Source: Opitutia bacterium | GTDB lineage: Bacteria > Verrucomicrobiota > Verrucomicrobiia > Opitutales > Opitutaceae | DNA: 64,000 nt | Direction: 5' to 3' | Assembly: GCA_947478395.1 (NCBI GenBank) | Contig: CANJVR010000001.1 | Coordinates: 640,001 to 704,000, forward strand | Part shown: one piece after another, positions 7,050-26,925 of the stretch | Layout: each line of letters begins with the position of its first letter | Position numbering within the stretch: the stretch's first letter is position 1 | Position numbers and translations under genes: made by a program | The notes under the pieces: model-generated | What the model was told of the DNA's origin: nothing | Seen by the model: only the letters and a program-made list of their open reading frames with translations | Databases searched by the model: none

Positions 7050-9176
7050 TTATTCCGGCAGCGCGAACGCCACGTAGGTGTCACCGGATTTCGTGCCGAG
7101 TTTGCCACCGCCACAGGCGATGACGACATATTGGCGACCGTTCACGGAATAGGTCGCCGGCGTCGCGTAGCCGCCGGCCGGCAGCGTCGTTTCCCAAATT
7201 TTTTCTCCGGTCTTCGCGTCGAACGCGCGGAATTTTTCGTCCTTCGTCGCGCCGATGAACAGCACGCCTCCAGCCGTCACGACCGGCCCACCGTAATTTT
7301 CCGCACCCGTCGGCGGAATACCGCGTGCCGTGAGTTCGGAAAATTCTCCCAGCGGTTTGCGCCAGAGATATTCGCCGGTGTTCAAATCGAGCGCATTGAT
7401 CGTGCCCCACGGCGGACGCAGGCCCGGATAGCCGCTGGGATCGAGCAAGCGGTTATAGCCCGTGGTCGCATACGGACTCACCCCCGCGCCCGTGCCCGCG
7501 GGCTCCACTTTGGCCACCGCGCTTTCGCCGGGCGCGGCGGCAACGCCGAGGAGAAAATCCGCGAGCACTCGTTTTTGTTCGTCCGGCAAAAAACCAAACG
7601 ACGGCATCACTCCGCGGCCCGTGCCGAGCAACGCCACGATCGCAGCAGCGTTCGATTTCTGCGCGAGGCCGGTGAGGCTCGCGATATTTTGCGCGGCATT
7701 GCCTTCGCGATTCACGCCGTGACACGACATGCAAAGCTGCGCGTAGAGCGCGGGCGCGGAGCCGGGCTTGGCGTCCGTTTTCGCCGGGACCATGGTCAGC
7801 ACCCAGGCCATCTCGTTGGCATTCACGTAAAGAATCCCGTGCGGATCGACCGCTGCGCCGCCCCACTCCCCGCCCCCGTCGAACCCCGGCAAAATAATTG
7901 TGCCGCGTTCACTGGGCGGATCGAACGGCACGTGGGGGCTTGCCGCGCGGACTTTGGCCAGCACCGCGTCGTGCGCGGCGGGCGTGAGGTCCGTCACTTC
8001 GGCCTCGGTAAAACGCTGGCGCGCAAACGGTGCTGGCTTCAACGGGAACGGCTGCGTGGGCGATGATTTTTCGCCCGCGAGAACCGACTTCGGCACAGGC
8101 TCTTCCCGCCATGGAAACAACGACTCGCCCGTCTCGCGGTTAAAGACCCACACGTGGCCCGACTTGGTCGTCTGGGCGACCGCCGCGATTTTTTTGCCAT
8201 CACGCATCACCTCGCACAATACCGGCGGCGCGGGCAGATCGCGGTCCCAAATGTCGTGGTGCACAAATTGAAAATGCCAGCGGCGTTTCCCGGTCGCAGC
8301 GTCGAGCGCGATGAGACAATTAGCGTAAAGATTGTCGCCGCGCCGGTCACCACCCCAGAAGTCGAAGGCCGTCGAACCCGTCGGCACAAACGCGAGTCCA
8401 CGCTCCTGATCGATCACGAGACCGGCCCACGAATTCGCCCCGCCCGCGGTTTTCCAGGCGTCGGTTGGCCAGGTTTCGGCGCCCGGCTCGCCGGGAAACG
8501 GAATGGTATGGAAAATCCACCGCCGCTGCCCGGTGCGCACATCGTAAGCGCGGATGTGACCGGGCGCCGCGGGCGCCGGACCTTCGCCGACGCGCATCGG
8601 CATGATGATGAGATCGCGAAAAATCGCGCCCGGCGTGTTGGCGGCGAGATAGAGCCCCGTGGTATCACGATCAAGTCCCGCCAGCAGATCAACGCGACCG
8701 CCGTCACCGAAAGAATCGATCACGCGACCGGTCGCCGGATCGACGGCGTAAAGGTAACGCCCCGCGGAAAACATCAGCCGACGCTCGCGCCCCTCGGCCC
8801 ACCACGAAAGACCGCGGCAGAGCCCGCGGTTGGCTTCAGCGAGCGTCGCGGCAAAAGGATTGAAACGCCAGAGCTCACGCCCCGTCGCCGCATCGAGCGC
8901 AAAGAGGAGGAGTTGCGGCGACGTCCCGTAAAGCACGCTGTCGACGACGAGCGGGTTACACTGAATCTGGGAACGGTTGCGCGGATCGGCGTCGCCGGTG
9001 CGAAACGTCCACGCGGGCTGGAGGCGGGCGACGTTGGCCGGCGTGATCTGAGTCAGGGACGAGAAATGCGTGCCGCCCGAGTCGCCGAGATACGCGCCCC
9101 AGTTGGCATCGGCGGCGGCGAAACCATGGGACGTGAAAACAACAACGGCGGATAGGAATGCGAGGTGTGAGCGCAT
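7050..9176 (-). CDS. PQQ-dependent (glucose) dehydrogenase with internal cytochrome c domain
   Basis: Signal peptide, PQQ beta-propeller repeats (ALDAATG..W), HHDIWDRD, GGEWGG, heme motif CMSCH with downstream GVMPSF. Confidence 0.88.
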   Translation of the reverse strand: MRSHLAFLSAVVVFTSHGFAAADANWGAYLGDSGGTHFSSLTQITPANVARLQPAWTFRTGDADPRNRSQIQCNPLVVDSVLYGTSPQLLLFALDAATGRELWRFNPFAATLAEANRGLCRGLSWWAEGRERRLMFSAGRYLYAVDPATGRVIDSFGDGGRVDLLAGLDRDTTGLYLAANTPGAIFRDLIIMPMRVGEGPAPAAPGHIRAYDVRTGQRRWIFHTIPFPGEPGAETWPTDAWKTAGGANSWAGLVIDQERGLAFVPTGSTAFDFWGGDRRGDNLYANCLIALDAATGKRRWHFQFVHHDIWDRDLPAPPVLCEVMRDGKKIAAVAQTTKSGHVWVFNRETGESLFPWREEPVPKSVLAGEKSSPTQPFPLKPAPFARQRFTEAEVTDLTPAAHDAVLAKVRAASPHVPFDPPSERGTIILPGFDGGGEWGGAAVDPHGILYVNANEMAWVLTMVPAKTDAKPGSAPALYAQLCMSCHGVNREGNAAQNIASLTGLAQKSNAAAIVALLGTGRGVMPSFGFLPDEQKRVLADFLLGVAAAPGESAVAKVEPAGTGAGVSPYATTGYNRLLDPSGYPGLRPPWGTINALDLNTGEYLWRKPLGEFSELTARGIPPTGAENYGGPVVTAGGVLFIGATKDEKFRAFDAKTGEKIWETTLPAGGYATPATYSVNGRQYVVIACGGGKLGTKSGDTYVAFALPE

Positions 9177-9238
9177 GGGATGGCTGACGAAGACGAAGTT
9201 CGTCACGCGCGGCGAGACGCGAAGCGGGGATCGCCGAC

Positions 9239-9441
9239 GGTAGGGCGGGTTATCGTTAGAGAGGTTTAACTAAAAGCGTAGCGACTAACGACGTAGCGGC
9301 AGGCGTCCCTGCCTGCCGAAACGAGGACGCCGAATCCGGCAGGCAGGGACGCCTGCCGCTACCCCTAACGGGCACGGAAAAACTTAATCCGCTCTAGCGG
9401 TGGCTGTAGAAACGGCGCGTTAGGGACAACGCGCCCCACCT
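9239..9441. repeat. REP-like inverted pair (family 3) interrupted by a MITE
   Basis: Left arm GGTAGGGCGGGTTATCGTTA/GCG resembles the reverse complement of the right arm (GGTGGGGCGCGTTGTCCCTAACG); the MITE sits at the TA. Confidence 0.6.
9259..9394 (+). mobile_element. MITE-like element family 1, copy A (best preserved, 136 bp)
   Basis: TA|GAGAGGTTTAAC...TTAATCCGCTC|TA; internal palindrome GTAGCGGCAGGCGTCCCTGCCTGCCG...CGGCAGGCAGGGACGCCTGCCGCTAC. Confidence 0.8.
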
Positions 9442-9451
9442 TAAGACGCCC

Positions 9452-10651
9452 TCAGGCGTAACCGCCGCCTTGCTTGATGCCGAGCGCTTGACGGCGCGCG
9501 CGACGATCGGCGGCGGCGGCTTTTTGATAGCCGCTGCGGCGATGCTCGGCGAGCGGATCGGCGGCGAGTTTGTTTGCCTTGCGCCACGCGGCGAGCGCGG
9601 GCGACACATCGGTGAAGAACGCTTTTTTCAATTCGAGCTCAGCGTCGACAACGTTATTTTTCGCCTGCGCCCGGCGAAGTGCGTCGTGGTCAACGAGTGC
9701 GGCTTTCGCGAAAAGCTCCTGGGCCATGATCACAGTCTGGATGGTCGCCTCGATCTTCGGCTTTTCGTTGTGCGACTGGTCGATCATGTAGGCGATTTTC
9801 GGCGCGCGACCGCGATCGGCGGCAAAGAAATGGATCTCGTGAAAAATCCGGAAGACTTGGTACGGATCGATCGAGCCGAGCGTGAGATCGTCATCGGCGT
9901 AGCGACGGTCGTTGAAATGGAAACCGCCGAGCATGTCCTCATCGAGGAGCCACGCAACGATCTGCTCGATGTTCTGCGCGGCGTAGTGATGGCCGGTATC
10001 GACGAGCACCTTGGCGCGCGGACCGGCTTTTTTAGAAAGCAAATACGACATACCCCAGTCGGCCACGTCGGTCGCGTAAAACGCGGGCTCGAACGGTTTG
10101 TATTCCACGAGCATCGTCTGCTTCGGGCCAATCTCTTTGTGCAATGCCTTGAGACATTCCTCGAAGTAGCCTTTGCGCGCGCGGATGCTCGCCTGTCCGG
10201 GATAATTCGTGCCGTCGGCAAACCAGAGGGAAAGATATTCGCTGCCGGTCGCCTGCATGATCGCGACTGAATCGAGACAATGGTCGAGCGCACGCTGGCG
10301 GACGGCCGGATCGTTGTGGCCGAAGGAACCCCACTTGTATTCCTGGTCTTGAAAAAGGTTGGGGTTGATCGATCCGATCTTCACGCCGTGCTTGCGCGCG
10401 AGACGGGCCACCGCTTTCGGATCCTCGCCGGTCTTAAAATCCCACAACACATGAACTGCCACGGTCGGGCAGCAACCGGTCAGCGCATGCACGTGGCCGG
10501 CGTCGGAAAGTTTGTCCCCGAGATCGATGGCAGAGGCATCCTGGAAAAATTTCCCGAAGCGGGTGCCGGTGTCGGCAAAACCCCAGGAGGGCGTCTCGAT
10601 GGCAAAATCACTGAGCGCCTCAATGGCGCGGCGGCGGAGTTTGGGTGTCAT
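9452..10651 (-). CDS. rhaI: L-rhamnose isomerase (RhaI-type, xylose-isomerase-like TIM barrel)
   Basis: ETPSWGFADTGTRF, WFADGTNYPGQ, VEYKPFEP, DTGHH, FHFNDRRYADDDL, MIDQSHN; ATG at 10651 chosen. Confidence 0.85.
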   Translation of the reverse strand: MTPKLRRRAIEALSDFAIETPSWGFADTGTRFGKFFQDASAIDLGDKLSDAGHVHALTGCCPTVAVHVLWDFKTGEDPKAVARLARKHGVKIGSINPNLFQDQEYKWGSFGHNDPAVRQRALDHCLDSVAIMQATGSEYLSLWFADGTNYPGQASIRARKGYFEECLKALHKEIGPKQTMLVEYKPFEPAFYATDVADWGMSYLLSKKAGPRAKVLVDTGHHYAAQNIEQIVAWLLDEDMLGGFHFNDRRYADDDLTLGSIDPYQVFRIFHEIHFFAADRGRAPKIAYMIDQSHNEKPKIEATIQTVIMAQELFAKAALVDHDALRRAQAKNNVVDAELELKKAFFTDVSPALAAWRKANKLAADPLAEHRRSGYQKAAAADRRARRQALGIKQGGGYA

Positions 10652-10851
10652 GATGGAAAGTAGGTTGTGCAACGCACGCCCGACGATGTCAGGCGCGAAA
10701 GTTCCTTGGACAGTCACGATGCCAACGCCACGGCCGCTAAGGACCGATCCGAAAATCCTCGGCCCGTCAGTCAGCCCACCGAGCTGACCGACGACCCGAT
10801 CAATCGAGACCTTGGCTTGCGTCTCAATCACGGCGGGTTGAGATCGGAACG

Positions 10852-11583
10852 GTGGCTCCCCAGAAGCTTTCCGTCATCATCCCGACCTGCAACGAGGCCA
10901 CCACGCTCGCCGAGATCATTGCGCGGGTCCGCGCAACCGGGCTGGTCGACGAAATCATCGTCGTGGATGATGGTTCAACGGATGATTCGCCCGCGATTTT
11001 GACGCGCCTAGAAAACGCATCGTCGCCGCGCCTGCGGCTCCTGCGCCATGCGCGCCGGAGCGGAAAAGGCGCCGCGGTGCGCAGCGGTCTTGCCATTGTG
11101 ACCGGTGAACTCGTCCTGATTCAGGACGCCGATCTGGAATACGATCCCGCGGATTACGCTGCCCTGCTGGCGCCGTTTTCCGCAGCGGAAGTCCAGGCGG
11201 TTTATGGCTCAAGAAATCTGCGGGTGAATCCACGTTCGAGCGGCGCGTTTTATTGGGGCGGGCGATTGCTGAGTTGGGTGACCAACCGTTTGTACGGCTC
11301 GCGTCTCACCGATGAAGCCACCGGGTACAAGGTCGTGCGCGCCGCGCTGCTGCGCGACCTCGGCCTGGTCGAAAGCGGTTTTGAGTTTTGTCCTGAGGTC
11401 ACGGCCAAACTCATCCGTCGCGGCGTGCCCATTCACGAAGTACCGATCACGTACCGGCCCCGTACGCGGGCCGCGGGGAAAAAAATCCGCTGGCACGACG
11501 GCATTACGGCCATCTGGACGCTGATAAAATATCGCGGCGCGAATGGCCGGCCAAAAATCGCAGACCGACCGGAGTCATCCTGA
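10852..11583 (+). CDS. GT2 glycosyltransferase, dolichol/polyprenyl-phosphate mannose synthase-like
   Basis: VIIPTCNE, VVDDGSTD, GKGAAV, IQDADLEYDP, LTDEATGYK, EVPITYRPR...GKKI. Confidence 0.9.
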   Translation: MAPQKLSVIIPTCNEATTLAEIIARVRATGLVDEIIVVDDGSTDDSPAILTRLENASSPRLRLLRHARRSGKGAAVRSGLAIVTGELVLIQDADLEYDPADYAALLAPFSAAEVQAVYGSRNLRVNPRSSGAFYWGGRLLSWVTNRLYGSRLTDEATGYKVVRAALLRDLGLVESGFEFCPEVTAKLIRRGVPIHEVPITYRPRTRAAGKKIRWHDGITAIWTLIKYRGANGRPKIADRPESS

Positions 11584-11742: not shown

Positions 11743-14244
11743 ATGGCGATAACGAGTCATCGCCGAGCGCGCTCCCGCCGGTTTCATTTTCTCGTTTGGC
11801 TTTCGGCTTTTGCCGTGGTGATCAGCTACGTCGTTTGGGATTCGGTCGCGCAGAGCCAGCATCTTTTGGAAACGAGCGGCCAATATGGTGTCGCCGTCGA
11901 CGCGCCCGCGATCGATCCGCATTCGGCCACGGGCTACGAACTCGGACGCCGCTCGTTGCTGCTGCCCGCCGGCGAGGCGGACACCGCACATTGGATCATG
12001 CAAACGCAGTCGATGATCGATCGCGGCGAGTGGCGGATCCGACATGTCGACTACGACAACGCTCCGCGCGGTCGTGAGGTACACTGGGCGATGCCCTTCC
12101 ACGCATGGCTGGCTGGGCTGGCCTGGATCGATCGCATCGTTTCGGACCGCCCGGCCGGTATTGCCGTCGAACGCGCCACGCTCCTGTCCGGCCCGGTCAT
12201 GCTCGCATTACTGCTGCTCGGACTCATGCCGTTTTTGAGCCGGAAATTCTCAACGATCGCGGCGGTGCTGGTCGCCATCGGTACCGTAACCACGTTTACG
12301 TTCTACCTCGATTTCATGCCGGCGCGGGCGGATCACCACGGACTCGCGATTATCTGCGGTTTATTCGTCGTGCTCTGCCTGGCGGCCGGTTCTTCGTTCG
12401 CGCCCCGTGTCGGAGCAAATCAAACGTCGGGCGCTGAAGATGAAATTCGCTCCGCGCGCTGGTGGTTTGCCGCATCGGGGCTGGCGGGTGGGCTGGGCTT
12501 GTGGGTGAGCGCCGCCACGACGGTACCGCTACTCGTCGGAGTAGGGCTCGGCCTGCTCAGCGGCGGTTGGATCGCGCGTCGTGCACCGGGATCACTGACC
12601 TGGATGAGGGTGCCGGGGTTGTGGCGGACCTGGGGCTGGGTCGGCGGCGGCACGAGCCTCGTCGCCTACACCATCGAATATTTCCCCAATTCCGCGGGTA
12701 TGCGGTTGGAGGTAAATCATCCGCTGTACGCCGCCGCCTGGGTCGGCGCCGGCGAACTGCTGCGCGCGGCGGTGATCGCGATGAACGCCGGGACCAAGAC
12801 ACTTTCTCGGCGTGATCTGAGCACCGCGACGGTGGCGGCCGGTTTGGTCACGCTTCTGCCGCTGGCTATATTCTTCACGGGAGAAAAAACATTCACGGTG
12901 TCAGATCCCTTCATCTGGCAATTACACTCGCGCTACATTTCAGAGTTTCAAAGCTTGGGCCGAAACTTCGCGGAGAAAGGCATTCATTGGGCAACCCTGG
13001 ACCTTTGCGGGCCCATGCTGTTCTTGATTCCGCCCATCGTTCTCCTGTTTCGGTCGGGCCCGTCGCGCGCGGTAAAAGCAGAACTTCTCCTCGTGGCCGT
13101 GCCGGCCTGGTTGGCGTGGGCGATGGGATGGAATCAGGTGCGCTGGCTCAGTTTGGCCTACGCGATGTCAGTGCCAGGGCTCGCGCTTTTCTTCCGCGCG
13201 CTCGAGGCCGAAAGCGGTGACGCGCGAAGGCGCCAGGTCGTCGCGTGGGCGGCGGCCTGCGGATTACTGATGCTTCCCGGCGCCATGAGCGCCGTGCAAC
13301 GAACCCTCACCAGTGCCGAATCCACCGCGACTGAGATTCGCCGCCTCGCAGAGCGCGATGTGGCGCACTGGTTGCGACTGCGCGGCGGTCCGGACCGCAC
13401 TGTCGTGGCGGCGGCGCCCATGCCGACGACGCGGCTGATTTCCGAAGGCGGGATGGCCGGATTGGGCACGCTCTATTGGGAAAATGCCGAAGGGCTCAAA
13501 AATACCGCGGCCCTTTTTGCCGCGAGCTCACCCGAGACGGCACGGGCTATGGTGCAACGACTCGGCGTGACTCACATCGTACTCTTTTCGTGGGACGCCT
13601 TCGAGATCACGTTGGCGAAACTCTATCGCGGCCTGCCGGAAAGCGCGCCGATCCCGCCGGATCTGTTCATCGCGAACCTGCTCGCCTCACCGCTGCCCCC
13701 GGCGTGGTTGCGGCCGGTCCCGTTTAAATTGCCAAATCACCCGTCGCTCACTGGGGCGCAGGTCCGTATCTGGGAAATTACGCCCGACCAATCGCCGGCG
13801 GAAGTCGCCGCTCACGCCGCGAACTATTATCTCGAGCTGGGCACGCCGGGTGTGAGCGCGACGTTCGCACCGCTGCTGGAAGGATTCGGCAACGACCTCG
13901 CCGCCACAGTCATGCGCGCAGCTCTCGCGGCGCGCGAACGGGACGGAGCCCGCTTCTCAGCCGCGCTCCAACCCGTGATGGCGCTCCTGCCCCGCGCCGG
14001 GACGCTCGCGCCCGAGGATCACGTTCATCTCGTGACGGTGCTCGCGATCGCGCAGCAAGCGGATCGGGCGCGCGAGCAATTGCAGGCGTGCATGAGAAAA
14101 ATCGACGAACGCAACCTGCGCCATTTCAGTACGGGTGCATTGACCGACTTGCTCGAGTTGTCGGCAGCATTGCAGGTGCCGCTGCCGAGCCCCGCGCTGC
14201 AACGACTGGCGGAAAAACTCGTGCCGCCGGCGAAGCGAAAATAG
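11743..14244 (+). CDS. AglB/STT3-like GT-C membrane glycosyltransferase lacking WWDYG
   Basis: Many TM helices; EADTAHW...DYDNAPRGREVHW, RADHHGL, YISEFQSL, QVRW, VAHWLR and ALFAASSPETARAMVQRLGVTHIV follow the AglB motif order. Confidence 0.68.
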   Translation: MAITSHRRARSRRFHFLVWLSAFAVVISYVVWDSVAQSQHLLETSGQYGVAVDAPAIDPHSATGYELGRRSLLLPAGEADTAHWIMQTQSMIDRGEWRIRHVDYDNAPRGREVHWAMPFHAWLAGLAWIDRIVSDRPAGIAVERATLLSGPVMLALLLLGLMPFLSRKFSTIAAVLVAIGTVTTFTFYLDFMPARADHHGLAIICGLFVVLCLAAGSSFAPRVGANQTSGAEDEIRSARWWFAASGLAGGLGLWVSAATTVPLLVGVGLGLLSGGWIARRAPGSLTWMRVPGLWRTWGWVGGGTSLVAYTIEYFPNSAGMRLEVNHPLYAAAWVGAGELLRAAVIAMNAGTKTLSRRDLSTATVAAGLVTLLPLAIFFTGEKTFTVSDPFIWQLHSRYISEFQSLGRNFAEKGIHWATLDLCGPMLFLIPPIVLLFRSGPSRAVKAELLLVAVPAWLAWAMGWNQVRWLSLAYAMSVPGLALFFRALEAESGDARRRQVVAWAAACGLLMLPGAMSAVQRTLTSAESTATEIRRLAERDVAHWLRLRGGPDRTVVAAAPMPTTRLISEGGMAGLGTLYWENAEGLKNTAALFAASSPETARAMVQRLGVTHIVLFSWDAFEITLAKLYRGLPESAPIPPDLFIANLLASPLPPAWLRPVPFKLPNHPSLTGAQVRIWEITPDQSPAEVAAHAANYYLELGTPGVSATFAPLLEGFGNDLAATVMRAALAARERDGARFSAALQPVMALLPRAGTLAPEDHVHLVTVLAIAQQADRAREQLQACMRKIDERNLRHFSTGALTDLLELSAALQVPLPSPALQRLAEKLVPPAKRK

Positions 14245-14345
14245 CGCGGCTTAAGTTTCTCCGTCGCCTTTGAGTGTAGCGGCCGGCGTCTCTGCCTGCC
14301 CGGTTAGGCGAAGTCGATAGCGGGCACGTTTTGGTTAAACCGCTT
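14244..14345 (-). mobile_element. MITE-like family 1, copy B (one hairpin arm missing)
   Basis: Minus strand TA|AAGCGGTTTAACCAAAACG...GGCAGGCAGAGACGCCGGCCGCTAC...GGAGAAACTTAAGCCGCGC|TA fills the whole gap between two convergent stop codons. Confidence 0.75.
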
Positions 14346-16558
14346 TAACGCGGCGTCGCGGGTAATTTTTCCAACATCGCGCGCGCAGCAGTGAATCCCG
14401 GATCAATTTTCAGCGCATCCTCAAAGCGCGCGCGTGCCTCGGGCCAACGTCCGGCCACCAGCAGCGCGTAACCAACATTGTAGTGGACCCGCGGATCGGC
14501 GGGACGCAGACGCAGCGCCGTCTCATAATGCGCGAGCGCTTCGGCACTGCGTTTCGCGTCGAGCAACGCGAGCGCGAGATTCGTGTGCGTTTCGGGCGCA
14601 TCGGGGCGGAGACGAACCGCTTGCTCCAGCTGGGCAATACCGTCGGTCAGCTTCCCCGTCTGGGCGAGCGCGATGCCGAGATTGAGGTGCGCATCGGCGT
14701 GGGCGGGATCGAGCCGGATGACCTCGGCGTACTGCGCCAGCGCCTCGTCCGTCCGACCGCTGCGCGCGAGAGCCTGCGCGAGATTGAAATGCGCCGCCGG
14801 CCAACCGGGCCGAAGGTGCAGCGCGGCGGTAAAATGCTCGATCGCCGCGGGCATGGAATTCGTCTGGAGCAGCGCCACGCCCCAATTGCTCTGGGCCTCG
14901 GCGTGCTGGGGATCGCCCTGCACGGCCAGCGCGTAATGTTCGATCGCCTCCGTCCAACGCCCGAGTGCCGCCAACGCCACCCCGAGTTGAAACTGTGCCT
15001 CGGCGGGAGCAGGATCGTAACGGATCGCCGCGGCAAAATGCGGGACCGCCTCCTGCGCCCGATCCAGTTTCATCAGCACGATTCCGAGATTAAGCTGCGC
15101 GTTGAAATAATACGGTAGGATGCGGACTGCCTCCGACAGAGGGGCGACGGCCTCGGCGAGTCGGCCGGTTTTCATCCAGGCGAGCCCGAGGTTGTAGTGC
15201 ACATGCGCATCGGAGGCGTCGAGGCGGAGCGATTCACGATAATGCGCGATGGCCTCGTCGAGTCGTTCGCTGCGATAAAGAATCAGGCCGAGGTTGCTAT
15301 GGGCGCGGGCATTGTCGGGACGCTTGGCCAGCGTGTCCTCCCACAAGCGCCGTTCGTCGCCATAGACCGCGTTTCGTCGCACCGTCATGACTCCCGCCGC
15401 GAGCGCGAGAACGGCGCTCGCCACGAGAAACGTGCGCGGTGGCCACCACCTCGCCGCCGCACCCAGTGCGAGCGCCACTGCGCCGGCCAGAGAAAGGTAA
15501 AGCCGGTGCTCTACGATCATCTGCAGCGCACCGGGCACGACACTGGTCGGCGCCAGCAGAGCGAAAAACCACGCTCCGCAAAATCCTACGATGGGCGCGC
15601 GCCACAACGCCACGACGGTGGCGCCCACCAACACCAGCACCGGAACGGACCACCCCGCGGCGGCAGCCAGAGCGGGAGGCGAAATTTTCCCGTAATCGAA
15701 AACCGACGGATGCGGCCAGACGACCAAACCCACATAGCGGGTGATCGCCTCGAATTGTGTGAGCCAGTAACCGGTCCACGAAACGCCGATGTCGAAGCCA
15801 ACGGTGCCGCCGCGATTCCCCCCTGTTTCGGCCAAAAGAATGGCCAGCGGCACCCACGTCGCCGCGAGCAGGAGCAGCGGCCAGCGATGACGTTGCCATG
15901 CCGCCGCGAAACCGCCGCTGACAAACGTTCGATCATAAAGCAGGATGAGCAACGGAGCGAGCGCCGTGACTTCCTTCGTGCCCACGCCCAACAGGCACGC
16001 GAGAAATGAAACCGTCCACCATCGCCACGGCTGCGACGAATCCACGCCGCGAATGAACGCATAGAGCGTAAGCAAAAAAAACAGCCCCATCAGCGATTCG
16101 GCGCGCTGCACGAGATACGTCACGGATTCGGTTTGCAGCGGGTGCAAGGTCCAGAGCGCCGCGATCGCCCACGCGACCGGCAAAGCACTGGACCGGAATC
16201 GCGCGGCGAGCGCCGGACGCAACAGTGTGCGCCGCACAATGCCGAACAAGGCGAGCCCGGCGAGCGTGTGGATTAAAAGATTAAACGCGTGATAGCTCCA
16301 GACGTTCGGTCCGCTGATCGCGTAGTTGATCGCGAGCGTGAGATTAAGGATGGGCCGGCCGCTCACCGTGAAGCCCCAACCCGCCGGCGGTGAGAGCGGG
16401 CCACTCAAAGGCCACAGCTGGCGGATCGTGGGGTTGTCCGCGATGGAAGCCACGTCGTCGAAGTGAAACGGAACGCGGAAGGTGTTCGCATAAGCTGCGA
16501 CCGCCGCGACGACGATCGTCAACGCCGCCAGCCGTAGTGCTCGATGACCGGGATTCAA
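14345..16558 (-). CDS. TMTC-like GT-C transferase with C-terminal TPR array
   Basis: PFHFDD, GRPILNLTLAINY, YHAFNLLIH, LHPLQTESVTYLVQRAE, GTKE, EHRLYL, then repeated TPRs (AHxNLG); TTG start uncertain. Confidence 0.85.
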   Translation of the reverse strand: MNPGHRALRLAALTIVVAAVAAYANTFRVPFHFDDVASIADNPTIRQLWPLSGPLSPPAGWGFTVSGRPILNLTLAINYAISGPNVWSYHAFNLLIHTLAGLALFGIVRRTLLRPALAARFRSSALPVAWAIAALWTLHPLQTESVTYLVQRAESLMGLFFLLTLYAFIRGVDSSQPWRWWTVSFLACLLGVGTKEVTALAPLLILLYDRTFVSGGFAAAWQRHRWPLLLLAATWVPLAILLAETGGNRGGTVGFDIGVSWTGYWLTQFEAITRYVGLVVWPHPSVFDYGKISPPALAAAAGWSVPVLVLVGATVVALWRAPIVGFCGAWFFALLAPTSVVPGALQMIVEHRLYLSLAGAVALALGAAARWWPPRTFLVASAVLALAAGVMTVRRNAVYGDERRLWEDTLAKRPDNARAHSNLGLILYRSERLDEAIAHYRESLRLDASDAHVHYNLGLAWMKTGRLAEAVAPLSEAVRILPYYFNAQLNLGIVLMKLDRAQEAVPHFAAAIRYDPAPAEAQFQLGVALAALGRWTEAIEHYALAVQGDPQHAEAQSNWGVALLQTNSMPAAIEHFTAALHLRPGWPAAHFNLAQALARSGRTDEALAQYAEVIRLDPAHADAHLNLGIALAQTGKLTDGIAQLEQAVRLRPDAPETHTNLALALLDAKRSAEALAHYETALRLRPADPRVHYNVGYALLVAGRWPEARARFEDALKIDPGFTAARAMLEKLPATPR

Positions 16559-16979: not shown

Positions 16980-19031
16980 CTACCGCGGCCGGGTCGGTCC
17001 CTGTAATTCAAGCGCGCGGGCAAGGTTTTCCTGAACCGCCCGGTCCTCGGGCCGCTCCTTTAGAATTCGGCGATATTGGAGGATGGCGGCCTCGGTGCGG
17101 CCGCTCACGAGGAGCGCATTGGCGAGGTTATTTCGCGCGGCCAGATAACCCGGGGCGAGATCCGTTGCCCGTTCGTAGTGACCGATCGCCGTCGGAAAAT
17201 CTCCGCCGGCCGCCGCCAGATTTCCGAGGAAGTAGAGCAACTCGGGGTAATCGGCCTTAAGTTTCAGCGCCCGCTCAGCCGCGCGGCGCGCCGCCGCTGG
17301 ATCACCTTGTTGCTGCAAGGCGTGCGCGAGCGCATACCACGTTTCAACGCGATTCGGGTCGAGTTCGGCGGCGTTCTTCAACTGCTCGATCGCTGGCGCC
17401 AGCCGCTTCATTTTCAGCCAGGTCGCACCGAGCGCCGCATGAATATCGGCGGCGTCCGGGTCGAGACGAAGCGCAGCTTCATAGTGCACCGCGGCATCTG
17501 CCGATCGGCCAAGACGGTCGAGCAGATAACCCAGATTGACCTCGGCATCGGCGCGCTTGGGATTGAACCGAATGGCTGCTTCGTAAGCCACTACAGCCTC
17601 GTCGGCCGCAGCGGTTTTTTCGAGCAACTGCCCCAGGTTGTAGTAAGCGGACGCGTAACGCGGATCGAGACGCAGCGCGGTCGCGAAATGGGTGCGCGCT
17701 TCCTCATTGCGCCCTGCGGTGAAAAGATAGGCGCCGAGATTGTTATGCGCCCGGGCGCTTGCCGGATTTTTGCGGATCACGTCCTCCCACAACCCCTGCG
17801 GCGAACGATAGTCGAAATTGCGCACCGCCGTGGTGATGCCCAACGCGAGCGCGACGCCCAGCGCCCCAACGCGGACCGTTGCAGCGGACATCGAGAATAA
17901 CCCCAGTGCGCCGAGCGCGATTACCGCGGCGAGCGGAAGGTACATGCGATGCTCGACCATCGCATCAGCGACGGGCACCACGCTGGACGTCGGAGCCAGT
18001 ATCACAAAAAACCACGCGCCCAGAAATCCCAGCATCGGCCGACGAACAAGCAGATAGATGGTCGCAGCCAAAAGCCCGAGCAGGACAAAGGCTTGGGGCC
18101 AGACTTCATTCAGACCCGTGGCGAGCCGGAGATTGTGATCGAAGATCAACGGGTGCGGCCACACCGCGAGTTTCAGGTAAGCGAGGATGACCTGACACTG
18201 GGTCAGCGCGTAATTCCAGGCACTCATACCGGTTTCAAATCCCGCCGTGCCTCCGCGTCCGCCCGAAGCTTTCATCAAACCGAGCAGCAAAAGCCACGTG
18301 CTCATCAACGCTCCATAAAACCAACGCCGGCGCTGCCACACCTCGCGCCAGGTCGCAGCGACAAACGTCCGATCGTAGAGCATCACCACGAGAGGCGCGG
18401 TCACCATCACCTCCTTGCAACCCATTCCAGTCAGACAGGCAACGAAGGCCGTGCCCTGCCATCGCCCCGGGTGGGCCGCGTCGATCGACCGGACAAAAAA
18501 ATACAGCGTAAGCAGGTAGCAAAGCCCCATCAGTGACTCGACCCGCTGCACGAGATAGGTCACGGACTCCGTTTGGAGTGGATGAAGGCTCCACCAGCCC
18601 GCAATCACGAGGGCCAGCACCACCGCCCGATCGCCCCAGCGCGCGAGCAACACGGGCCGCAGCAGCGTGCGGCGCACGAGGCCGAACAACGTTAAACCTG
18701 CGAGCAGGTGGATCAGGAGATTGACCGCGTGATAACTCCAAAGCGCGGAGCCACTGATCGCATAATTCAGAGCGAGGGTCAGGTTGGGAACGGGCCGGCC
18801 CGAGAGCGTTCCGCCTTGGGGACCGATGGCGACGAGGAATAAATCCCAACGCGTGAGATCGCGGATTGTGGGGTTGTTCGCGATGCCGGGAATGTCATCG
18901 AAAACGAGCGCGCCATTAAAACTGGTGGCGTACGCCAAAACGGTGACGGCGATCAGCAGCCGTGCGGACCACTTTACAGAACCCTGCGCGCCTAACGAAT
19001 AATTCCAAAACGGTAGGGGTCGTGGCACCAT
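16980..19031 (-). CDS. TMTC-like GT-C transferase with C-terminal TPR array (paralog)
   Basis: LVFDD, GRPVPNLTLALNY, YHAVNLLIH, LHPLQTESVTYLVQRVE, GCKE, EHRMYL and TPRs; clearly paralogous to 14345-16558. Confidence 0.85.
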   Translation of the reverse strand: MVPRPLPFWNYSLGAQGSVKWSARLLIAVTVLAYATSFNGALVFDDIPGIANNPTIRDLTRWDLFLVAIGPQGGTLSGRPVPNLTLALNYAISGSALWSYHAVNLLIHLLAGLTLFGLVRRTLLRPVLLARWGDRAVVLALVIAGWWSLHPLQTESVTYLVQRVESLMGLCYLLTLYFFVRSIDAAHPGRWQGTAFVACLTGMGCKEVMVTAPLVVMLYDRTFVAATWREVWQRRRWFYGALMSTWLLLLGLMKASGGRGGTAGFETGMSAWNYALTQCQVILAYLKLAVWPHPLIFDHNLRLATGLNEVWPQAFVLLGLLAATIYLLVRRPMLGFLGAWFFVILAPTSSVVPVADAMVEHRMYLPLAAVIALGALGLFSMSAATVRVGALGVALALGITTAVRNFDYRSPQGLWEDVIRKNPASARAHNNLGAYLFTAGRNEEARTHFATALRLDPRYASAYYNLGQLLEKTAAADEAVVAYEAAIRFNPKRADAEVNLGYLLDRLGRSADAAVHYEAALRLDPDAADIHAALGATWLKMKRLAPAIEQLKNAAELDPNRVETWYALAHALQQQGDPAAARRAAERALKLKADYPELLYFLGNLAAAGGDFPTAIGHYERATDLAPGYLAARNNLANALLVSGRTEAAILQYRRILKERPEDRAVQENLARALELQGPTRPR

Positions 19032-19173: not shown

Positions 19174-22100
19174 TTACAGGTCGAAGGTCGTCGTGACGAA
19201 CCAGACCCGCGGATCTTTGATGCGATATTGAGCGGGCGAGCCATCGGCATTGAAGAGAATCGCCTGGAGGCCACCCTTTTCCATGACGTCGCGCACATTG
19301 AACTGAACTTTCATCCGAGTCTTATCGTTGAAGATCTTCCTCTGATACGAGAGGGTGAGATCGATGTGCGTCTCGGCCGGGAGGTAGATCGGACGGCCCA
19401 GATCAGGATAAACGATCGAAGCGTCTACCGCGGTCGGATGGGCATAGCGGGCGGGATTCGTTTCGCCGAAATAACCGGCGACGGCTTTATCCTGCCAGCG
19501 CACGCTGCCACCGACGCCGAAGCCCTTGAGGGGACCATTCGTGAAGTTGTAGTTCGTCAGGAAATTTGCGCTCCATTCGCGCAGATTCGCCTGCTTGGCG
19601 CCTTCTTGAGAGGTCAGCTGATAGAGACCTGGTTCGACGATGCTGTTGTAGGTCGCGTGAGCGGAACCCGTCTGGCCGGTCGTGTTAGAACCCGCATCAC
19701 CACTAAAACCATAGCCTTCCCAGTAGTTGCCGAGGTACATCTTGTTGCCGTTGCTCAGCGTGTAGATCGTTTGGAGATCTGGCGCGGCCATCTTTTCCCA
19801 CATCGGCTTGCGATAAGCGATCCAGCTGGTGAGTTCGCGCAGTGCTTTTTGGTACGTCGCGAACTGCTGACCCACCGTCACCTTCATCGTCCAACTGCGG
19901 GTCGGATTATAGGTGAGCTGCAATTCTTTACCCTTCGAGATGTTCGTCGCCGTGCCCTGCGGCCCGCCGAAGACCGGCCAGCGCTCGTCCAAGTTGAAGG
20001 GCAATCCCCACAACGTTTGGATTTGATTGGCCATCGCCTGCGTGAGCGGATGGGTCGTGTTATTATCGAAATCGGTCGCGGCCGGATCTTCACCGTTGCG
20101 AATGCGGACAACCTTACGCGCCCAGTCCAAACCGGAACTGTTATCGATACGCACCGTGCGGCCTGTGACCGTGCTCGCGATCGCCTGGGGCGAATTCTCA
20201 TCCGTGCTTTCGAACCAGTTCAGACGAGCAACAAGCTTGTTGTTAAACAAACTGATGCCGACGCCGTAGTCCTTGCCGTGACCTTGCGGTTTGCCGAGGG
20301 GCGTACCGAAGAAGTCGTATTGGATCGAAGGGGGCGCATTGAAGTTGTTGGACGTGTTATAGTGGAAATCGAGGCCGCGGATGATACTCGCGACCGTGCT
20401 GCCCTTATCCACTGCGCGATCGATTGGCGCCCAGTTGACGAAAGGACGTACCACAGCGCCTTGGGTCTTGGTGCTACCCTCAACATAGAAGGGGGTACCC
20501 AGGATTTCGGCATAAGCGTCGGTACCGAAACCTTGCGGGTAGAGAACGCCCGTTGCTGGCTGCGGACCCTTCTGGCGAATTTTGATCTTATCGTTGCGCC
20601 AACCGAACGTCGGGAGCAAACGATCCTGCCAGAGATAGCCCTGCCACGAGAAGCTGCGGGAATCGAGTTGCTTCCAAGTAATGCCGTTCGCGTTGCCCGC
20701 GTAGAAGGCATTGTTGTGGAAACTCATCTCCGAGTTGCTGTAGGACGAGGTATTCCAGTTATAGAAGCGCATCGGAGCGTGATCCACTCCGCCGAATCCA
20801 GGCGCACCGGGAGCAGCAATACCCTGCGTAACGGTGCCGTTCGAGCCCTTGCCGAGATAGTAGTAACGAGCGAGCGTCGCACTGCCAGACCAGTTGAATG
20901 CTGCTCCAGTTGTGGCTGCCGCCGGCAGGAAGCGCGGGTCGCCGCCGTCCAAGGACAGGCGATAGCGCAGGTTATCCAATTTATCAGTCTGGCGGCTACC
21001 CAAACCAGAGAACCGATGGCGGCCCAAGAAGCGGGTCCAGCCTTCGTTTTTCTTGAAGTTGAGTTCATACGCCACGACCGCGCGCAGATTATTATTGATT
21101 TCAGGACGGGAGAAATCGTCGGCCTGCCAATCCTGGACGTACGGCGAACCGAAATACGGATTCGGCGAGCCGTCCAAGAGCTTGGAGTTGGTATCGACGA
21201 ACAGACGAAGATTATCGTTAACCTGTCCTAGGCCGTAATGATTGCGCTCCTGCATTTCCTGGCGGAACCAGCCGAAATCGACGTTCAGGTTGGGCAAGAT
21301 TTCCTGTTGGAATTGGATATTGAACGTCTTGGCGTCCTGCGAACCGTAGTTCGCGCCTTGGATATTATATTTGGTCCAGTCGTAGATGGACTTGTCGGTC
21401 ACGCCGACTTCGTACCAGGTGCCGTATTGCGTCGCGCCCGTGCTAGCTGGGGGCCGCGGCGTCTGCAGCAATGCTGAGGTCGTGTAACGCGCCGAAGCAG
21501 CCAGCCACTGAGCGGCGGTGCGGTTAGCGGCGAGGGGAGCTGCATAGGTATTTAATGGGGCGGTGGTTGCGCCAGCGCCGGACAATGCGCTATCAACCCA
21601 GAAATCGACGAGTGCGCCTTGGTCGTAGCGGATGCGCTGGCGGCCAGGGATCGTGATACCGGGAATATAGAAGGCCGACGTCGTGCCACTGATTGCACCA
21701 TCACCAACCGGGGAAACTGCGGTCGACACAAACCGTGGATCGCGGCTGTCAACCAAGTAGGGCCCACGCGTCTGGCCAGCCTGCGCGCCGGATGTAAACG
21801 TGACCGTTTGGGTCGTGGGATCCCAGGCCGGACGCCCGGCGTTGACCCAAGGTGTAACGATGTCGGTCGGCTCACCGAAATTGGGACGATTGTTATCGTT
21901 GTGGTAGCGTTCGAAGGAGGCCGTGATCTTCGTCTTGCCGTTGGCGAATGGCTTGTAGGTCAGAGCCGCCGTCGCGCGTTTGTAGATATCGGACGACGGT
22001 TTCCGTTGGAAACCGCGGTGATCGTCGAGGACTGCGGCGTACAAAGCGACCCTGGTGCCGAGCGGAACATTCACCCCGAGGCTGGCGCGCCAAGCGCCAA

Positions 22101-22863
22101 AACTGCCGAAGCGGGCCGAGACCGTCGTGTGATTTTGGTTCAACACTGCCTCGCTGGTCGATTGATTGACGATACCCGAGGCGCCACCGGCGCCGAAGAG
22201 CATCGAGTTCGGACCGCGGCTGATTTCAACCGAGTTCGTGTTGTAGGTATCGAAAGCCAGACGCGAAATCGTGGGATAATTATTCTGCGCTGTATCGGCC
22301 GCGCCCAAGCCGCGTACGCGATTCGCCGTCGCGATGCCAAAAGGAATGCCATCGTCGTTGCTGTAGCCGCCGATACCATCGCGCGCCGCGCCACGATTCA
22401 CGAGACTCGGCGTATAAGTGGCGGCGCCTTCCGTGTTCGATTCGAACAGGAAGATGTCGTTGATATCGAGCGCGCCCGTATCTTCGATCTGCTGTTTCGT
22501 AACGACCGTGATCGAGGCGGCGAGATCGCCGACGTTCGTGTTCAGGCGGCTGCCGAAAAGGGTATTCTGGGCGTAGTAACCAGAATCCTTCTCCGAAGAG
22601 ACGGTGAACGGAGAAAGTTCAACGACGCCAGAATTGGCATCTGCCCCAGTTGCCGTCGCACTCGCAGCTTTCGCTTGGTCCGCCTGCATGGCGGCAACTT
22701 CGTCAGCGTCGAGCTTGCCGTTTTTGTTTTTGTCGTACTGCGCGAGATTCTTCGCGGTGTCAGCGGCGGGCGCGCTCTGCGCCCACAGCGTGGCCGATGC
22801 CGTCAGAAGGCACAGCGGCAGTAATGCACGCCGTGTTTTCCGTGATAGGGGAGTCGATTTCAT
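19174..22863 (-). CDS. TonB-dependent receptor with N-terminal EF-hand-like loop
   Basis: Signal peptide, VVELSPFTV TonB-box-like segment, plug motif VEISRGPNSMLFG, C-terminal TTTFDL. Confidence 0.9.
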   Translation of the reverse strand: MKSTPLSRKTRRALLPLCLLTASATLWAQSAPAADTAKNLAQYDKNKNGKLDADEVAAMQADQAKAASATATGADANSGVVELSPFTVSSEKDSGYYAQNTLFGSRLNTNVGDLAASITVVTKQQIEDTGALDINDIFLFESNTEGAATYTPSLVNRGAARDGIGGYSNDDGIPFGIATANRVRGLGAADTAQNNYPTISRLAFDTYNTNSVEISRGPNSMLFGAGGASGIVNQSTSEAVLNQNHTTVSARFGSFGAWRASLGVNVPLGTRVALYAAVLDDHRGFQRKPSSDIYKRATAALTYKPFANGKTKITASFERYHNDNNRPNFGEPTDIVTPWVNAGRPAWDPTTQTVTFTSGAQAGQTRGPYLVDSRDPRFVSTAVSPVGDGAISGTTSAFYIPGITIPGRQRIRYDQGALVDFWVDSALSGAGATTAPLNTYAAPLAANRTAAQWLAASARYTTSALLQTPRPPASTGATQYGTWYEVGVTDKSIYDWTKYNIQGANYGSQDAKTFNIQFQQEILPNLNVDFGWFRQEMQERNHYGLGQVNDNLRLFVDTNSKLLDGSPNPYFGSPYVQDWQADDFSRPEINNNLRAVVAYELNFKKNEGWTRFLGRHRFSGLGSRQTDKLDNLRYRLSLDGGDPRFLPAAATTGAAFNWSGSATLARYYYLGKGSNGTVTQGIAAPGAPGFGGVDHAPMRFYNWNTSSYSNSEMSFHNNAFYAGNANGITWKQLDSRSFSWQGYLWQDRLLPTFGWRNDKIKIRQKGPQPATGVLYPQGFGTDAYAEILGTPFYVEGSTKTQGAVVRPFVNWAPIDRAVDKGSTVASIIRGLDFHYNTSNNFNAPPSIQYDFFGTPLGKPQGHGKDYGVGISLFNNKLVARLNWFESTDENSPQAIASTVTGRTVRIDNSSGLDWARKVVRIRNGEDPAATDFDNNTTHPLTQAMANQIQTLWGLPFNLDERWPVFGGPQGTATNISKGKELQLTYNPTRSWTMKVTVGQQFATYQKALRELTSWIAYRKPMWEKMAAPDLQTIYTLSNGNKMYLGNYWEGYGFSGDAGSNTTGQTGSAHATYNSIVEPGLYQLTSQEGAKQANLREWSANFLTNYNFTNGPLKGFGVGGSVRWQDKAVAGYFGETNPARYAHPTAVDASIVYPDLGRPIYLPAETHIDLTLSYQRKIFNDKTRMKVQFNVRDVMEKGGLQAILFNADGSPAQYRIKDPRVWFVTTTFDL

Positions 22864-23004
22864 AGTTCAGATCGGGGGTGTGGTGTTAGGGAAGATGAGA
22901 GGCCATCGCTGCCAAAGCAGCAGCAACGACTGTTTCCAAATGGCGGGGAAATTTACAAGAATGGGATAACTAACCTCCCAAAACCAAACGGAATAAAAGG
23001 CTGG

Positions 23005-23015
23005 GCAACCGTTGC
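23005..23015. promoter_or_regulatory. Possible LacI-family-type operator palindrome
   Basis: GCAAC-C-GTTGC about 140 nt upstream of the TBDR1 start. Confidence 0.3.
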
Positions 23016-23121
23016 AGGATCGGACGGTCCGAAAGGTGGTCGCAGCAGTATTCGGGAGCGGTCTTTAGCCACGTCGACGTCATGATCGGAAAGTGGCCCT
23101 CCGGTTTAGAACCTCAGCCTT

Positions 23122-23255
23122 CAGCGTTGAACCAAAACGTTGTCGGCTAATGACGTAGCGGCAGGCGTCCCTTCCTGCCGAAATGATGCGCCGAACCCGG
23201 CCGGCACCGACGCATCCCTCGGTCCAAGATGGGGATCGAACAATCTCAACTGCCC
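23122..23255 (+). mobile_element. MITE-like family 1, copy D (degenerate)
   Basis: GTTGAACCAAAACGTTGTCGGCTAATGACGTAGCGGCAGGCGTCCCTTCCTGCCGAAA...CCGAACCCGGCCGGC matches copy A; right half decayed. Confidence 0.7.
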
Positions 23256-23275
23256 TTGCGGGTCGAAATAGGCCA

Positions 23276-23308
23276 AAAAAAGGCCCTCCGCTTTTGACGG
23301 AGGGCCTT
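23276..23308 (-). terminator. Intrinsic terminator after TonB-dependent receptor 2
   Basis: A-run followed by GGCCCTCCG-loop-CGGAGGGCC, about 20 nt downstream of the stop. Confidence 0.85.
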
Positions 23309-23327
23309 GGAAGACGATCGGGGACGA

Positions 23328-26300: not shown

Positions 26301-26744
26301 GACTTCGAATTGAAAAATGTCGTTGATATCGAGCGCCGCCGTATCGAGCAACTGCTCCTTGGTGACGACGGTCATCGAACTCGCGATATCCTCGAGCTTA
26401 GAGTTCAGACGAGTGCCGGACAGCGTGCTGGATGCCGCATAACCTTTGTCGTCTGCCCCGCTGACCTCGAAAGGGGAAAGCACCGTGACGTCTTTCGCCG
26501 TTTCCGCAGCGGAGGGCGCGGCGGTCTTCTCGATCGCCGCCGCTTCCTCTTTCGTAAGAGGCTTGGCCGGGTCCTTCTTCACAGCGGCGGGGGTGGCCGC
26601 AGCCGGGGACGTCTGGCCCGGTACTGCGGGCGTTGGCGTCGGGGCAACAGCATCAGCGCCACGCAGCGAAACAAAGGCCAAACATGCGGGCAACAGCGTC
26701 GCACGGGGCAAATAGCCAAGACGGGAGATCCAATTTGGTTTCAT
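23328..26744 (-). CDS. TonB-dependent receptor
   Basis: ATG 26744 (MKPNWISR...), TVLSPFEV, VEIARGPNS, C-terminal TATFDL; paralog of 19174-22863. Confidence 0.9.
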   Translation of the reverse strand: MKPNWISRLGYLPRATLLPACLAFVSLRGADAVAPTPTPAVPGQTSPAAATPAAVKKDPAKPLTKEEAAAIEKTAAPSAAETAKDVTVLSPFEVSGADDKGYAASSTLSGTRLNSKLEDIASSMTVVTKEQLLDTAALDINDIFQFEVGTEGTAQFTDPTNDGRGNYDNVSGNPTGANRIRGLAQAGILVGGFEASSSIPIDPYNLDSVEIARGPNSTTAGLSDAGGTVNLNQSRGNLSRAITSVSSRVDSVGGFRFSIDLNRPIIRNKLGFRFSAVYNEVGYQRKPSVDRTNRQQFALAFNPFRTTRINGSFEMFHEFAQRANAVTPRDTITNWKANGSPTYDNLSQRFTINGVLQPAITTMTNNVPAGISLLGSSNARDVQYIDDGQIHFFMRGGQPNNTPSAVDQFTQSAGVSAAGPLYTLPGTTDRAIYDYTSVNISAPNRQIMSAKIFNVSLEQEIFQVKNARLDFNAAWRREEQEDSRRQFIAQQDGVPAVLEVDTNLRLVDQRINPFFLRPFIGGLAPQVFKYPLFSDSYRAQTALQIDFVRESGWKKWLGTHRWAGYGETSTKFSAPSGLRFHDSVVDNPNFIGSAITSPLPTSNFTAVNSALFYPLYYYGKTPAGGVEYGNPGPTNPNGFVKGAGSYFSTTANKWVTGEDATIQEIYFSQNKQKRVIRTLGASAQDFWLDGRFVTTLGLRVDRTNTQDNLPIALYNGFYDTSELDRFGQNKKYLQGTTRTKGLVVKPFRAIPFIDRIANERSGAGSFIAELIRGTNFNFSRSNTFRPADVAYNLFLDQLPNPTSVAEEYGITVNYTNKFSMRLTHHQTTQFHTRAGTGTIATRVLGMDFHPGGQNLTFNLYDAATGWQQQLNPNLTLEQAQTAAAKQIGYSFDFINNAGGKTFGDASDAISRGYELEINLNPTRYWTLKVTGNKQEAIDTNISLFIQKYIDLRLPLWTTVRSPDGTLWWTTTQGSNGRPVDYYTANIQTPLNLAITTQGKKKPQTREYSANFITNFQLAGLGGLVNNNWLKNVSVGGSYRWASRGAIGYLAGPADSDGVVRTLDRTKPIYDKATGNANILATYRTKLFNNRIGTRFQVNVNNVNESGRLQPTAVNPDGTPWRFRIVDPRQFIFTATFDL

Positions 26745-26925
26745 GAAAATAAAGGCAGCGAACAGCTTGGGTGGTGAATCAGACGGTTGGTGGTACGAAT
26801 GGATCCGCGCGTGGTCAGCGGCGAACCCGATGGGGCAAGGTAAATACGAACTCAAAGAACTACTTTTAATCGCAGGTCCGGAGAAACTCCGCGTCTACGG
26901 ACAGTCTTACTGGTCAATAGCCGTG

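Follow-up and report, generated by a model that had tools for sequence, protein, structure and literature searches.

The gene at positions 11743–14244 (+) of the window, the stretch of 64,000 nucleotides from an Opitutia bacterium (Verrucomicrobiota, Opitutaceae; contig CANJVR010000001.1, positions 640,001–704,000) analysed here, encodes a membrane protein of 833 amino acids (aa) with the fold of the oligosaccharyltransferases (OSTs) AglB and STT3, which keeps the catalytic residues of AglB and has lost the WWDYG motif. With a probability of about 0.6, we propose that it is an active Mn2+- or more generally metal-dependent glycosyltransferase of the GT-C class that transfers a sugar from a polyprenyl-phosphate carrier to exported proteins, free of the rule that demands Ser/Thr at the +2 position of the acceptor. 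This proposal draws on the fold, the mapping of the catalytic residues, their retention and the loss of WWD across the whole family, and the recurrent neighbours of the gene. Judged by its sequence, the protein would work like AglB yet fall outside the OSTs by the WWD test. The open reading frame is intact (833 codons, ATG start, no internal stops), all 14 signature residues checked are present, and the gene is single-copy in its own genome (3.3 Mb, 98.8% complete).

The 833-aa protein alone has no match in Pfam, PF02516 included, and only a weak one to the NCBIfam model of archaeal STT3, TIGR04154 (E 0.0073; 14.7 bits, cut-off 450). A PDB sequence search found no match for the whole protein or for the profile of its membrane part, and the profile of its periplasmic “dome” domain reached Archaeoglobus fulgidus AglB-S2 (AfAglB-S2) at E 0.015. 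The fold is much clearer. The AlphaFold model built from 150 homologues (pLDDT 96.0, pTM 0.94) has A. fulgidus AglB as its top Foldseek match (E 4.2e-11), and the 27 best rows, down to E 1.2e-3, are all GT-C enzymes except for one tetratricopeptide repeat (TPR) complex. In whole-chain structure comparison, AglB scores Z 20.3 (root-mean-square deviation 4.3 over 599 residues), followed by Caenorhabditis elegans DPY19 (CeDPY19; 19.7), STT3 (18–19.5), Pmt4 (14.9), and Campylobacter PglB (14.5), while the lipid- and glycan-modifying enzymes ALG12, ArnT, AftA, and AftD score 14.2, 14.0, 11.1, and 10.8, respectively. On the modelled chain, AglB and CeDPY19 are thus tied by Z. The dome (residues 528–682; 13324–13788, +; pLDDT 92.7) was also modelled alone and ranks the folds in the same order, with protein-modifying enzymes above lipid- and glycan-modifying ones: AfAglB-S2 14.2, AglB-L 13.0, STT3 12.6, DPY19 11.7, AftD 7.2. 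The protein therefore has the architecture of family GT66, i.e., a GT-C membrane core followed by an OST-type C-terminal globular domain (Z 20.3; dome 14.2; hhalign 98%), and the AglB/STT3-like identity given in the preliminary description is borne out by structure and profile comparison alike.

For residue-level mapping, a canonical comparison set was assembled by scanning named genomes for the WWDYG-coding pattern; the best 80 of 120 stretches were taken and yielded 73 usable AglB/STT3 proteins. Aligned with these by hhalign (probability 98), the family with an intact site places D80, D197-H-H, E401, and R467 on the AglB first Asp, second DXD, TIXE Glu, and Arg, with column posteriors of 0.94, 1.0, 0.84, and 0.92, respectively. 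In A. fulgidus AglB the corresponding residues are Asp47, Asp161-His162-His163, Glu360, and Arg426, and His81 lies near the phosphate (PMC8342417). On the plus strand of the window, D80, the first-loop catalytic Asp, is encoded at 11980–11982 (conserved in 121/121 close homologues); the loop D105-N-x-P-x-G-R-E-V-H114-W115 at 12055–12087; the metal-binding motif D197-H198-H199 at 12331–12339; Y398-I-S-E401-F402, the TIXE/SVSE equivalent in external loop 5 (EL5), at 12934–12948; and R467-W468 at 13141–13146, with R467 as the phosphate-binding Arg (AfAglB Arg426, CeDPY19 Arg471). H114 occupies the position of His81, and its spacing of 34 residues from D80 equals that of D47 and H81 in AfAglB. Thus, the GT66 catalytic set of first Asp, second DXD in the form D-H-H, TIXE/SVSE Glu, and phosphate Arg is complete, with the Thr of TIXE replaced by Y/H/F and I399 kept in 223/260 intact-site sequences. 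All motifs listed earlier from the DNA alone lie where they were placed (D80 at 11980, D197-H-H at 12331, Y398-I-S-E401 at 12934–12945, R467 at 13141, V554–T563 at 13402–13431), and the suggested check against the AglB active site, made here by fold comparison and profile alignment, puts the catalytic residues on those of AglB.

Compared with the solved A. fulgidus enzymes AglB-L and AglB-S2 (PDB 7E9S, 3WAK, 5GMY, 3VU0), the protein differs in being bacterial and only 12% identical, in lacking WWDYG and a conserved Lys at the DK position, and in carrying YWEN at the DGGK loop, an extra LEVNHP loop, and a TPR-like tail instead of the beta-rich peripheral domain. It shares with STT3 and PglB the GT-C membrane core plus dome and has N581 at the Asn column following their DNxT motif; unlike them, it has D-H-H in place of D-x-E/D-x-D and neither a WWD pocket nor a pgl-type locus around the gene.

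The gene is not a peculiarity, as it had been treated at first, but a member of a sizeable family. Homologue searches returned 745 proteins, of which the best 120 were examined, and 1129 representatives at 50% identity, of which the best 150 were examined; named homologues are mostly labelled Opitutaceae, and Atlas clusters belong mostly to Verrucomicrobiota. Among the matches listed, 266 distinct homologues include 200 in subfamily A, to which the studied protein belongs and which is defined by retention of four or more of the five marker residues, 55 in subfamily B, and 11 partial sequences that were set aside. Columns not used for this sorting are nearly invariant in subfamily A (of 200: R467 200; E323, W468, and E580 199 each; N581 198; H114, N325, and W579 197 each; D197 191), and the signature residues remain so down to approximately 30% identity. 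Another 26 members, more distant and drawn from 20 loci, all keep D80, W115, D197, H198, E401, R467, and W-E-N, and none has WWD. In the most divergent of them (L286–L288; 626–655 aa), D-H-H has become D-H-E and the LEVNHP loop is degenerate, with YWEN kept. The family was found in 77/151 genomes of the same bacterial family and in 42/401 genomes of the phylum.

This distribution also bears on whether the protein has become inactive, is decaying, or serves as a scaffold without catalysis. The sister clade nearest to it no longer has the catalytic residues, and the family was not found in the four other genomes of the same genus (0/4). Nevertheless, the frame is undamaged and the 14 signature residues are near-invariant in distant relatives, and so we give this explanation hardly any credence; decay of a single copy, in particular, was rejected, as the catalytic set is kept and WWD is absent across the homologues.

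The site of WWDYG lies in the register A558-P559-M560-P561-T562 (13414–13428, +), within the VVAAAPMPTT segment that the preliminary description had pointed to. The alignment posterior there is about 0.1 when the motif is left in, because every protein of the AglB set was chosen for having WWDYG. Once the seven motif columns were masked, the same register was recovered gapless with confidence 7–8 and probability 96. No Trp occurs at positions 556–562 in 260 intact-site sequences (some genes are counted twice in this set), and WWD is found elsewhere in only 2/200 subfamily A proteins. The family pattern is small-P-x-x-T: positions 558, 560, and 561 vary freely (entropy 2.5–3.2 bits), and T/S stands at 562 in 231/260. 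Near position 621, corresponding to the DK motif, there is no conserved Lys (E/A/T/V occur there); the alignment posteriors are only 0.2–0.4, and an MI-type residue may be present.

Two other loops, by contrast with this variable segment, are near-invariant and specific to the family. LEVNHP (L322–P327; 12706–12723, +), probably in EL4, has E323 in 199, N325 in 197, and H326 in 195 of 200 proteins and aligns to AglB with a posterior of only 0.3. T576-L-Y-W-E-N581 (13468–13485, +) occupies the DGGK/DNxT loop and keeps W-E-N in 26/26 distant members; W579 aligns with the AfAglB-type Thr/Gln and with CeDPY19 Tyr578. Taken together, the retention of the catalytic set, the absence of Trp at 556–562, and the variability of 558, 560, and 561 argue, at the level of sequence, for a single early loss of the WWD pocket without replacement in place, with LEVNHP and YWEN newly fixed. 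The expectation that homologues would keep the catalytic residues and consistently lack WWD is thus confirmed.

In known enzymes, TIXE binds the acceptor peptide's backbone and WWD the +2 Ser/Thr (PMC8342417; PMC10859629). An ordinary N-x-S/T OST that reads the +2 hydroxyl through other residues, such as T562 or the YWEN loop, would agree with the intact AglB-type catalytic centre, the frequent T/S at 562, the lack of any PF02516 match in the 98.8% complete genome, and the 1–6 sequons in each of the PEP-CTERM proteins encoded next to some family genes. However, both W residues and the D are gone, whereas WWD is described as strictly conserved in its role of binding the +2 Ser/Thr (PMC10859629) and WWDXG as essential, with characterised bacterial enzymes deviating only within WWDXG (PMC12229607). 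Moreover, sequons are not clearly enriched in the neighbouring PEP-CTERM proteins (+2 S/T in 21/71 against a background of 0.24, with 13–19/71 at control offsets) or in the neighbouring receptors (71/388 against 0.17). We therefore consider an ordinary OST quite improbable.

DPY19 (GT98; PDB 7ZLG–7ZLI) offers a precedent for an STT3-type fold that has lost WWD and changed its acceptor (PMC10154233; PMC6801728), so that this loss is not in itself new. A DPY19-like tryptophan C-glycosyltransferase could account for the tie in whole-chain Z, for the absence of WWD, for the gapless alignment of W579-E580 with the F/Y-E of the bacterial Dpy19-like family, and hence with CeDPY19 Tyr578, and for the score of 0.98 to an Atlas cluster in which 62% of the members are Dpy19; bacterial DPY19 look-alikes also end in TPRs. 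Tyr578 of CeDPY19 stacks on the acceptor indole, and DPY19 is described as metal-independent and devoid of metal-ligand residues (PMC10154233), whereas the studied family keeps D80 and D-H-H. Of the residues lining the acceptor-Trp groove of DPY19 (Tyr395, Phe401, Pro576, Tyr578), Tyr578 is matched by W579, Pro576 is replaced by Leu, and EL5 aligns with a posterior of about 0.1 only. Region-wise hhalign gives the membrane part 98% to AglB against a negligible 0.4% to the Dpy19-like family, and the dome 94–96% against 46%; together with the retained metal motif, this argues on profile evidence that the family is AglB-derived. PF02516 matches 20/59 family members at E ≤ 0.05, and 10/59 relatives pass its cut-off on their N-terminal part, while Dpy19 (PF10034) matches 0/59 and nothing in the genome of origin. 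Finally, the neighbouring receptors contain a single WxxW in 5178 residues, i.e., no enrichment. There is accordingly little chance that the protein is a DPY19-type enzyme. A chimera of an AglB membrane part and a DPY19 dome, suggested by high Dpy19-like posteriors, was rejected by the WWDYG-masked region-wise control; the AglB posteriors had been low because the AglB set was chosen by the exact WWDYG pattern.

The bacterial DPY19-like family itself is present in 80/401 genomes of the phylum, exceeds the Pfam cut-off in 50 of them, and matches CeDPY19 at E 7e-23. Its invariant residues align with Glu71, Arg471, and Pro576, an aromatic residue stands at Tyr578, and the proteins end in a TPR tail, making them candidate tryptophan C-glycosyltransferases.

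Upstream of the AglB-like gene is a glycosyltransferase of family 2 (GT2) of the polyprenyl-phosphate-sugar synthase type (10852–11583, +; PF00535 E 2e-31; best NCBIfam model AglJ, below cut-off), which could make the donor. Two genes for TMTC-like membrane glycosyltransferases with TPRs and two genes for TonB-dependent receptors face the AglB-like gene from the other side. The first TMTC-like gene is its convergent neighbour (14345–16558, −; TPR matches; Atlas PMT_2 cluster 0.97), followed by the second (16980–19031, −), and both carry the DD, RP, and KExxT motifs used for this label (PMC7801869). PMT_2 itself matches 3/13 TMTC-like N-terminal domains and not that of the 14345–16558 protein. 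The adjacent receptor (19174–22863, −; Plug PF07715) is a candidate acceptor conserved in 5/6 close loci. After each of the tandem receptors (19174–26855, −) comes a terminator-like site with a long hairpin plus T (19129–19099 and 23308–23280), so that transcription of the TMTC-like genes may be separate.

Neighbourhood counts were made on 12–20 kb stretches chosen from the match lists. The six close subfamily A loci contain TMTC-like genes in 6/6 cases, receptors in 5/6, and the GT2 in 1/6. Among the 20 distant loci, TMTC-like genes occur in 11 and a PEP-CTERM gene in 8, in 4 of the 8 directly upstream of the family gene on the same strand. The TMTC-bearing close and distant clades are separate in the tree, the family gene clusters with 2–4 TMTC-like enzymes, and the genome of origin has only six TMTC-like genes in 3.3 Mb. 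The PEP-CTERM proteins of the distant loci are small (212–234 aa) and are encoded beside one or two intact-site genes and TMTC-like genes (L273–L276, L278, L291, L292); four of these loci also have a cyclophilin-domain gene. PEP-CTERM proteins are often Ser/Thr-rich and suspected to be glycosylated (bioRxiv 10.1101/2023.06.07.544157). The TMTC1–4 and TMEM260 O-mannosyltransferases, whose relatives thus adjoin the studied gene, fall into another subclass of GT-C enzymes, one with a DD motif and 11 membrane helices (PMC7801869; PMC6801728), and the TPR tail of the studied family, unlike theirs, is optional.

These neighbours also fit a different proposal, in which an active GT-C enzyme uses a sugar or lipid acceptor, either extending a sugar first placed by the TMTC-like enzymes or decorating an envelope glycan or glycolipid in the manner of ArnT, AftD, or ALG enzymes. 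Clustering with 2–4 TMTC-like enzymes would suit such a priming-plus-extension pathway, and an enzyme with a non-peptide acceptor could afford to lose the +2 pocket altogether. A derived clade of the family (subfamily B, see below) resides in TonB-receptor/FG-GAP loci, which we take to be a carbohydrate-type setting. In addition, the core of the dome is common to arabinosyltransferases (PMC10154233). On the other hand, GT-C enzymes acting on lipids and glycans score lower in both the whole-chain and the dome comparisons, and the peptide-binding I-x-E strand is kept, so that we regard a sugar or lipid acceptor as unlikely.

The preferred reading, transfer onto exported proteins, takes its peptide acceptor from the nearest solved folds (AglB, DPY19, STT3, PglB), all of which are protein-modifying, from the kept I-x-E strand, and from the neighbours; the variability of the WWD segment, which did not become another conserved pocket, fits as well. 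The AglB-derived enzyme would act from the inner membrane in the periplasm. By analogy with AglB and PglB, Mn2+ would be held by D80, D197, and H199 together with E401, and the donor phosphate by R467 and H114. More loosely, the acceptor peptide may run along the strand that contains I-x-E401, and the new specificity may come from the invariant loops YWEN and LEVNHP. The least firm steps are that the upstream GT2 would make the donor and that the TMTC-like neighbours would act on the same exported proteins, namely, the TonB-dependent receptor here and PEP-CTERM proteins in distant relatives. Within this reading, an Asn amide would have roughly an even chance of being the acceptor and a Ser/Thr hydroxyl a somewhat smaller one, the amide being favoured because the D80/E401 pair, which engages the amide in AglB, is kept. 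The earlier suggestion of an active enzyme with a different acceptor rule thus stands as the best reading, with candidate acceptors that range over Asn lacking a +2 S/T, Ser/Thr, Trp, a glycan, and a lipid.

Several observations weigh against it. The TIXE threonine is replaced by Y/H/F, and among the 26 distant members H199 is changed in four and H114 in four. The 19 other intact-site loci have no TMTC-like genes (0/19) and an adjacent GT2 in only two (2/19); with 1/6 in the close loci, this linkage is not conserved, and the GT2 was rejected as a fixed partner. Neither an exosortase match nor a convincing PEP-CTERM protein was found in the genome of origin, which rejects PEP-CTERM proteins as the acceptor there, so that no single acceptor class spans the family. 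Related genomes in the family counts are not independent samples. Finally, 24/26 distant members lack the TPR tail, and a role for it in place of WWD throughout the family was therefore rejected.

The tail itself, i.e., the helical C-terminal extension noticed earlier, is real: residues 685–833 (13795–14241, +) are TPR-like (E 2e-6 to designed TPRs, supported by structure comparison), and 170/201 intact-site rows cover it. In TMEM260, a TPR module suffices to recognise the acceptor (bioRxiv 10.64898/2026.03.17.711096), and by analogy the tail of the studied protein may act in the same way.

Subfamily B is the degenerate counterpart of subfamily A. In 105 rows it keeps the structural residues W617 (105), R538 (105), and G584 (104) and scatters at D80, E401, and R467, suggesting a candidate clade of pseudo-glycosyltransferases. 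In a tree built without the five sorting columns, 47/49 B sequences form one clade (support 0.80; the root is not fixed, the outgroup resting on 186 mapped columns), and in a locus-only tree 44/44 form one clade (0.68) inside A, grouped with the clade of the studied gene (1.0). B is therefore likely derived from A, as far as such trees can tell. Up to six B copies occur per genome, and five single-contig genomes have B without A. Of 37 B loci, 36 contain FG-GAP/ASPIC-UnbV genes, encoding proteins of about 1200 aa, and 29 contain TonB-dependent receptors; locus L271 has an intact-site gene in the same FG-GAP/ASPIC and receptor setting.

A heterodimer of active A and inactive B was not supported: with at most six candidates per genome scored, all classified matches were B in the five single-contig genomes (6/6 in G071, 4/4 in G133, 3/3 in G034, 2/2 in G021, and 1/1 in G111), and the genome of origin has A alone. 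Long B frames (1483–2071 aa) were rejected as fusions, since they have no Pfam domain and overlap opposite-strand FG-GAP/ASPIC genes. A wider scenario, doubtful as a whole, is that a Verrucomicrobiota lineage of AglB turned into a sequon-independent protein N-glycosyltransferase, forming with TMTC-like enzymes a periplasmic platform of several enzymes for surface proteins, and that TonB-receptor/FG-GAP-ASPIC loci took up a catalytically dead clade derived from it, of which a genome has as many as six copies.

On the strength of its sequences, the family is real and conserved, and it appears uncharacterised. No description of it was found in the literature searched, which left most subscription journals outside and supplements unopened (e.g., the trees and networks of PMC10584680 and PMC4973528). 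Many hypothetical prokaryotic proteins have been linked to STT3/PglB (PMC10584680), and the accessible portion of PMC4973528 does not mention the studied group. WWD has been regarded as strictly conserved and as what confines N-glycans to N-x-S/T; a family of hundreds of single-subunit proteins with an AglB catalytic centre and no WWD asks what then sets specificity and makes glycosylation of amides or other acceptors without a +2 anchor a testable question. If the proposal is true, the family would show how AglB can arrive at a new acceptor chemistry, as happened in DPY19, and could provide glycoengineering with a transferase of a different site rule. The intact A and degenerate B sister clades form a natural control pair.

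Around the studied gene, promoter and terminator scans stayed at chance level, no RNA holder is listed, and plasmids gave no match. Just upstream (7050–10831, −) lie two genes that are not conserved next to family members, one for a PQQ-dependent dehydrogenase bearing a cytochrome c domain and one resembling L-rhamnose isomerase. The same genome also has a third close TMTC-like gene (C7:31498–33558), which lies among five GT2 matches (C7:24000–75000) in what is possibly its main glycosylation cluster.

Other AglB/STT3-like genes were seen in the phylum. A genome of the same bacterial family has a separate AglB-like gene (L129:6697–9201, −) with the AglB peripheral domain, D-H-H, and one Trp at the apparent WWDYG site, located inside a glycosyltransferase/ABC-exporter cluster; a database search seeded with this distant protein gave five matches only. 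STT3-like genes with WWDNG occur in one genus (L102–L104) and are the only WWD-bearing ones among the reading frames picked from 28 PF02516 matches.

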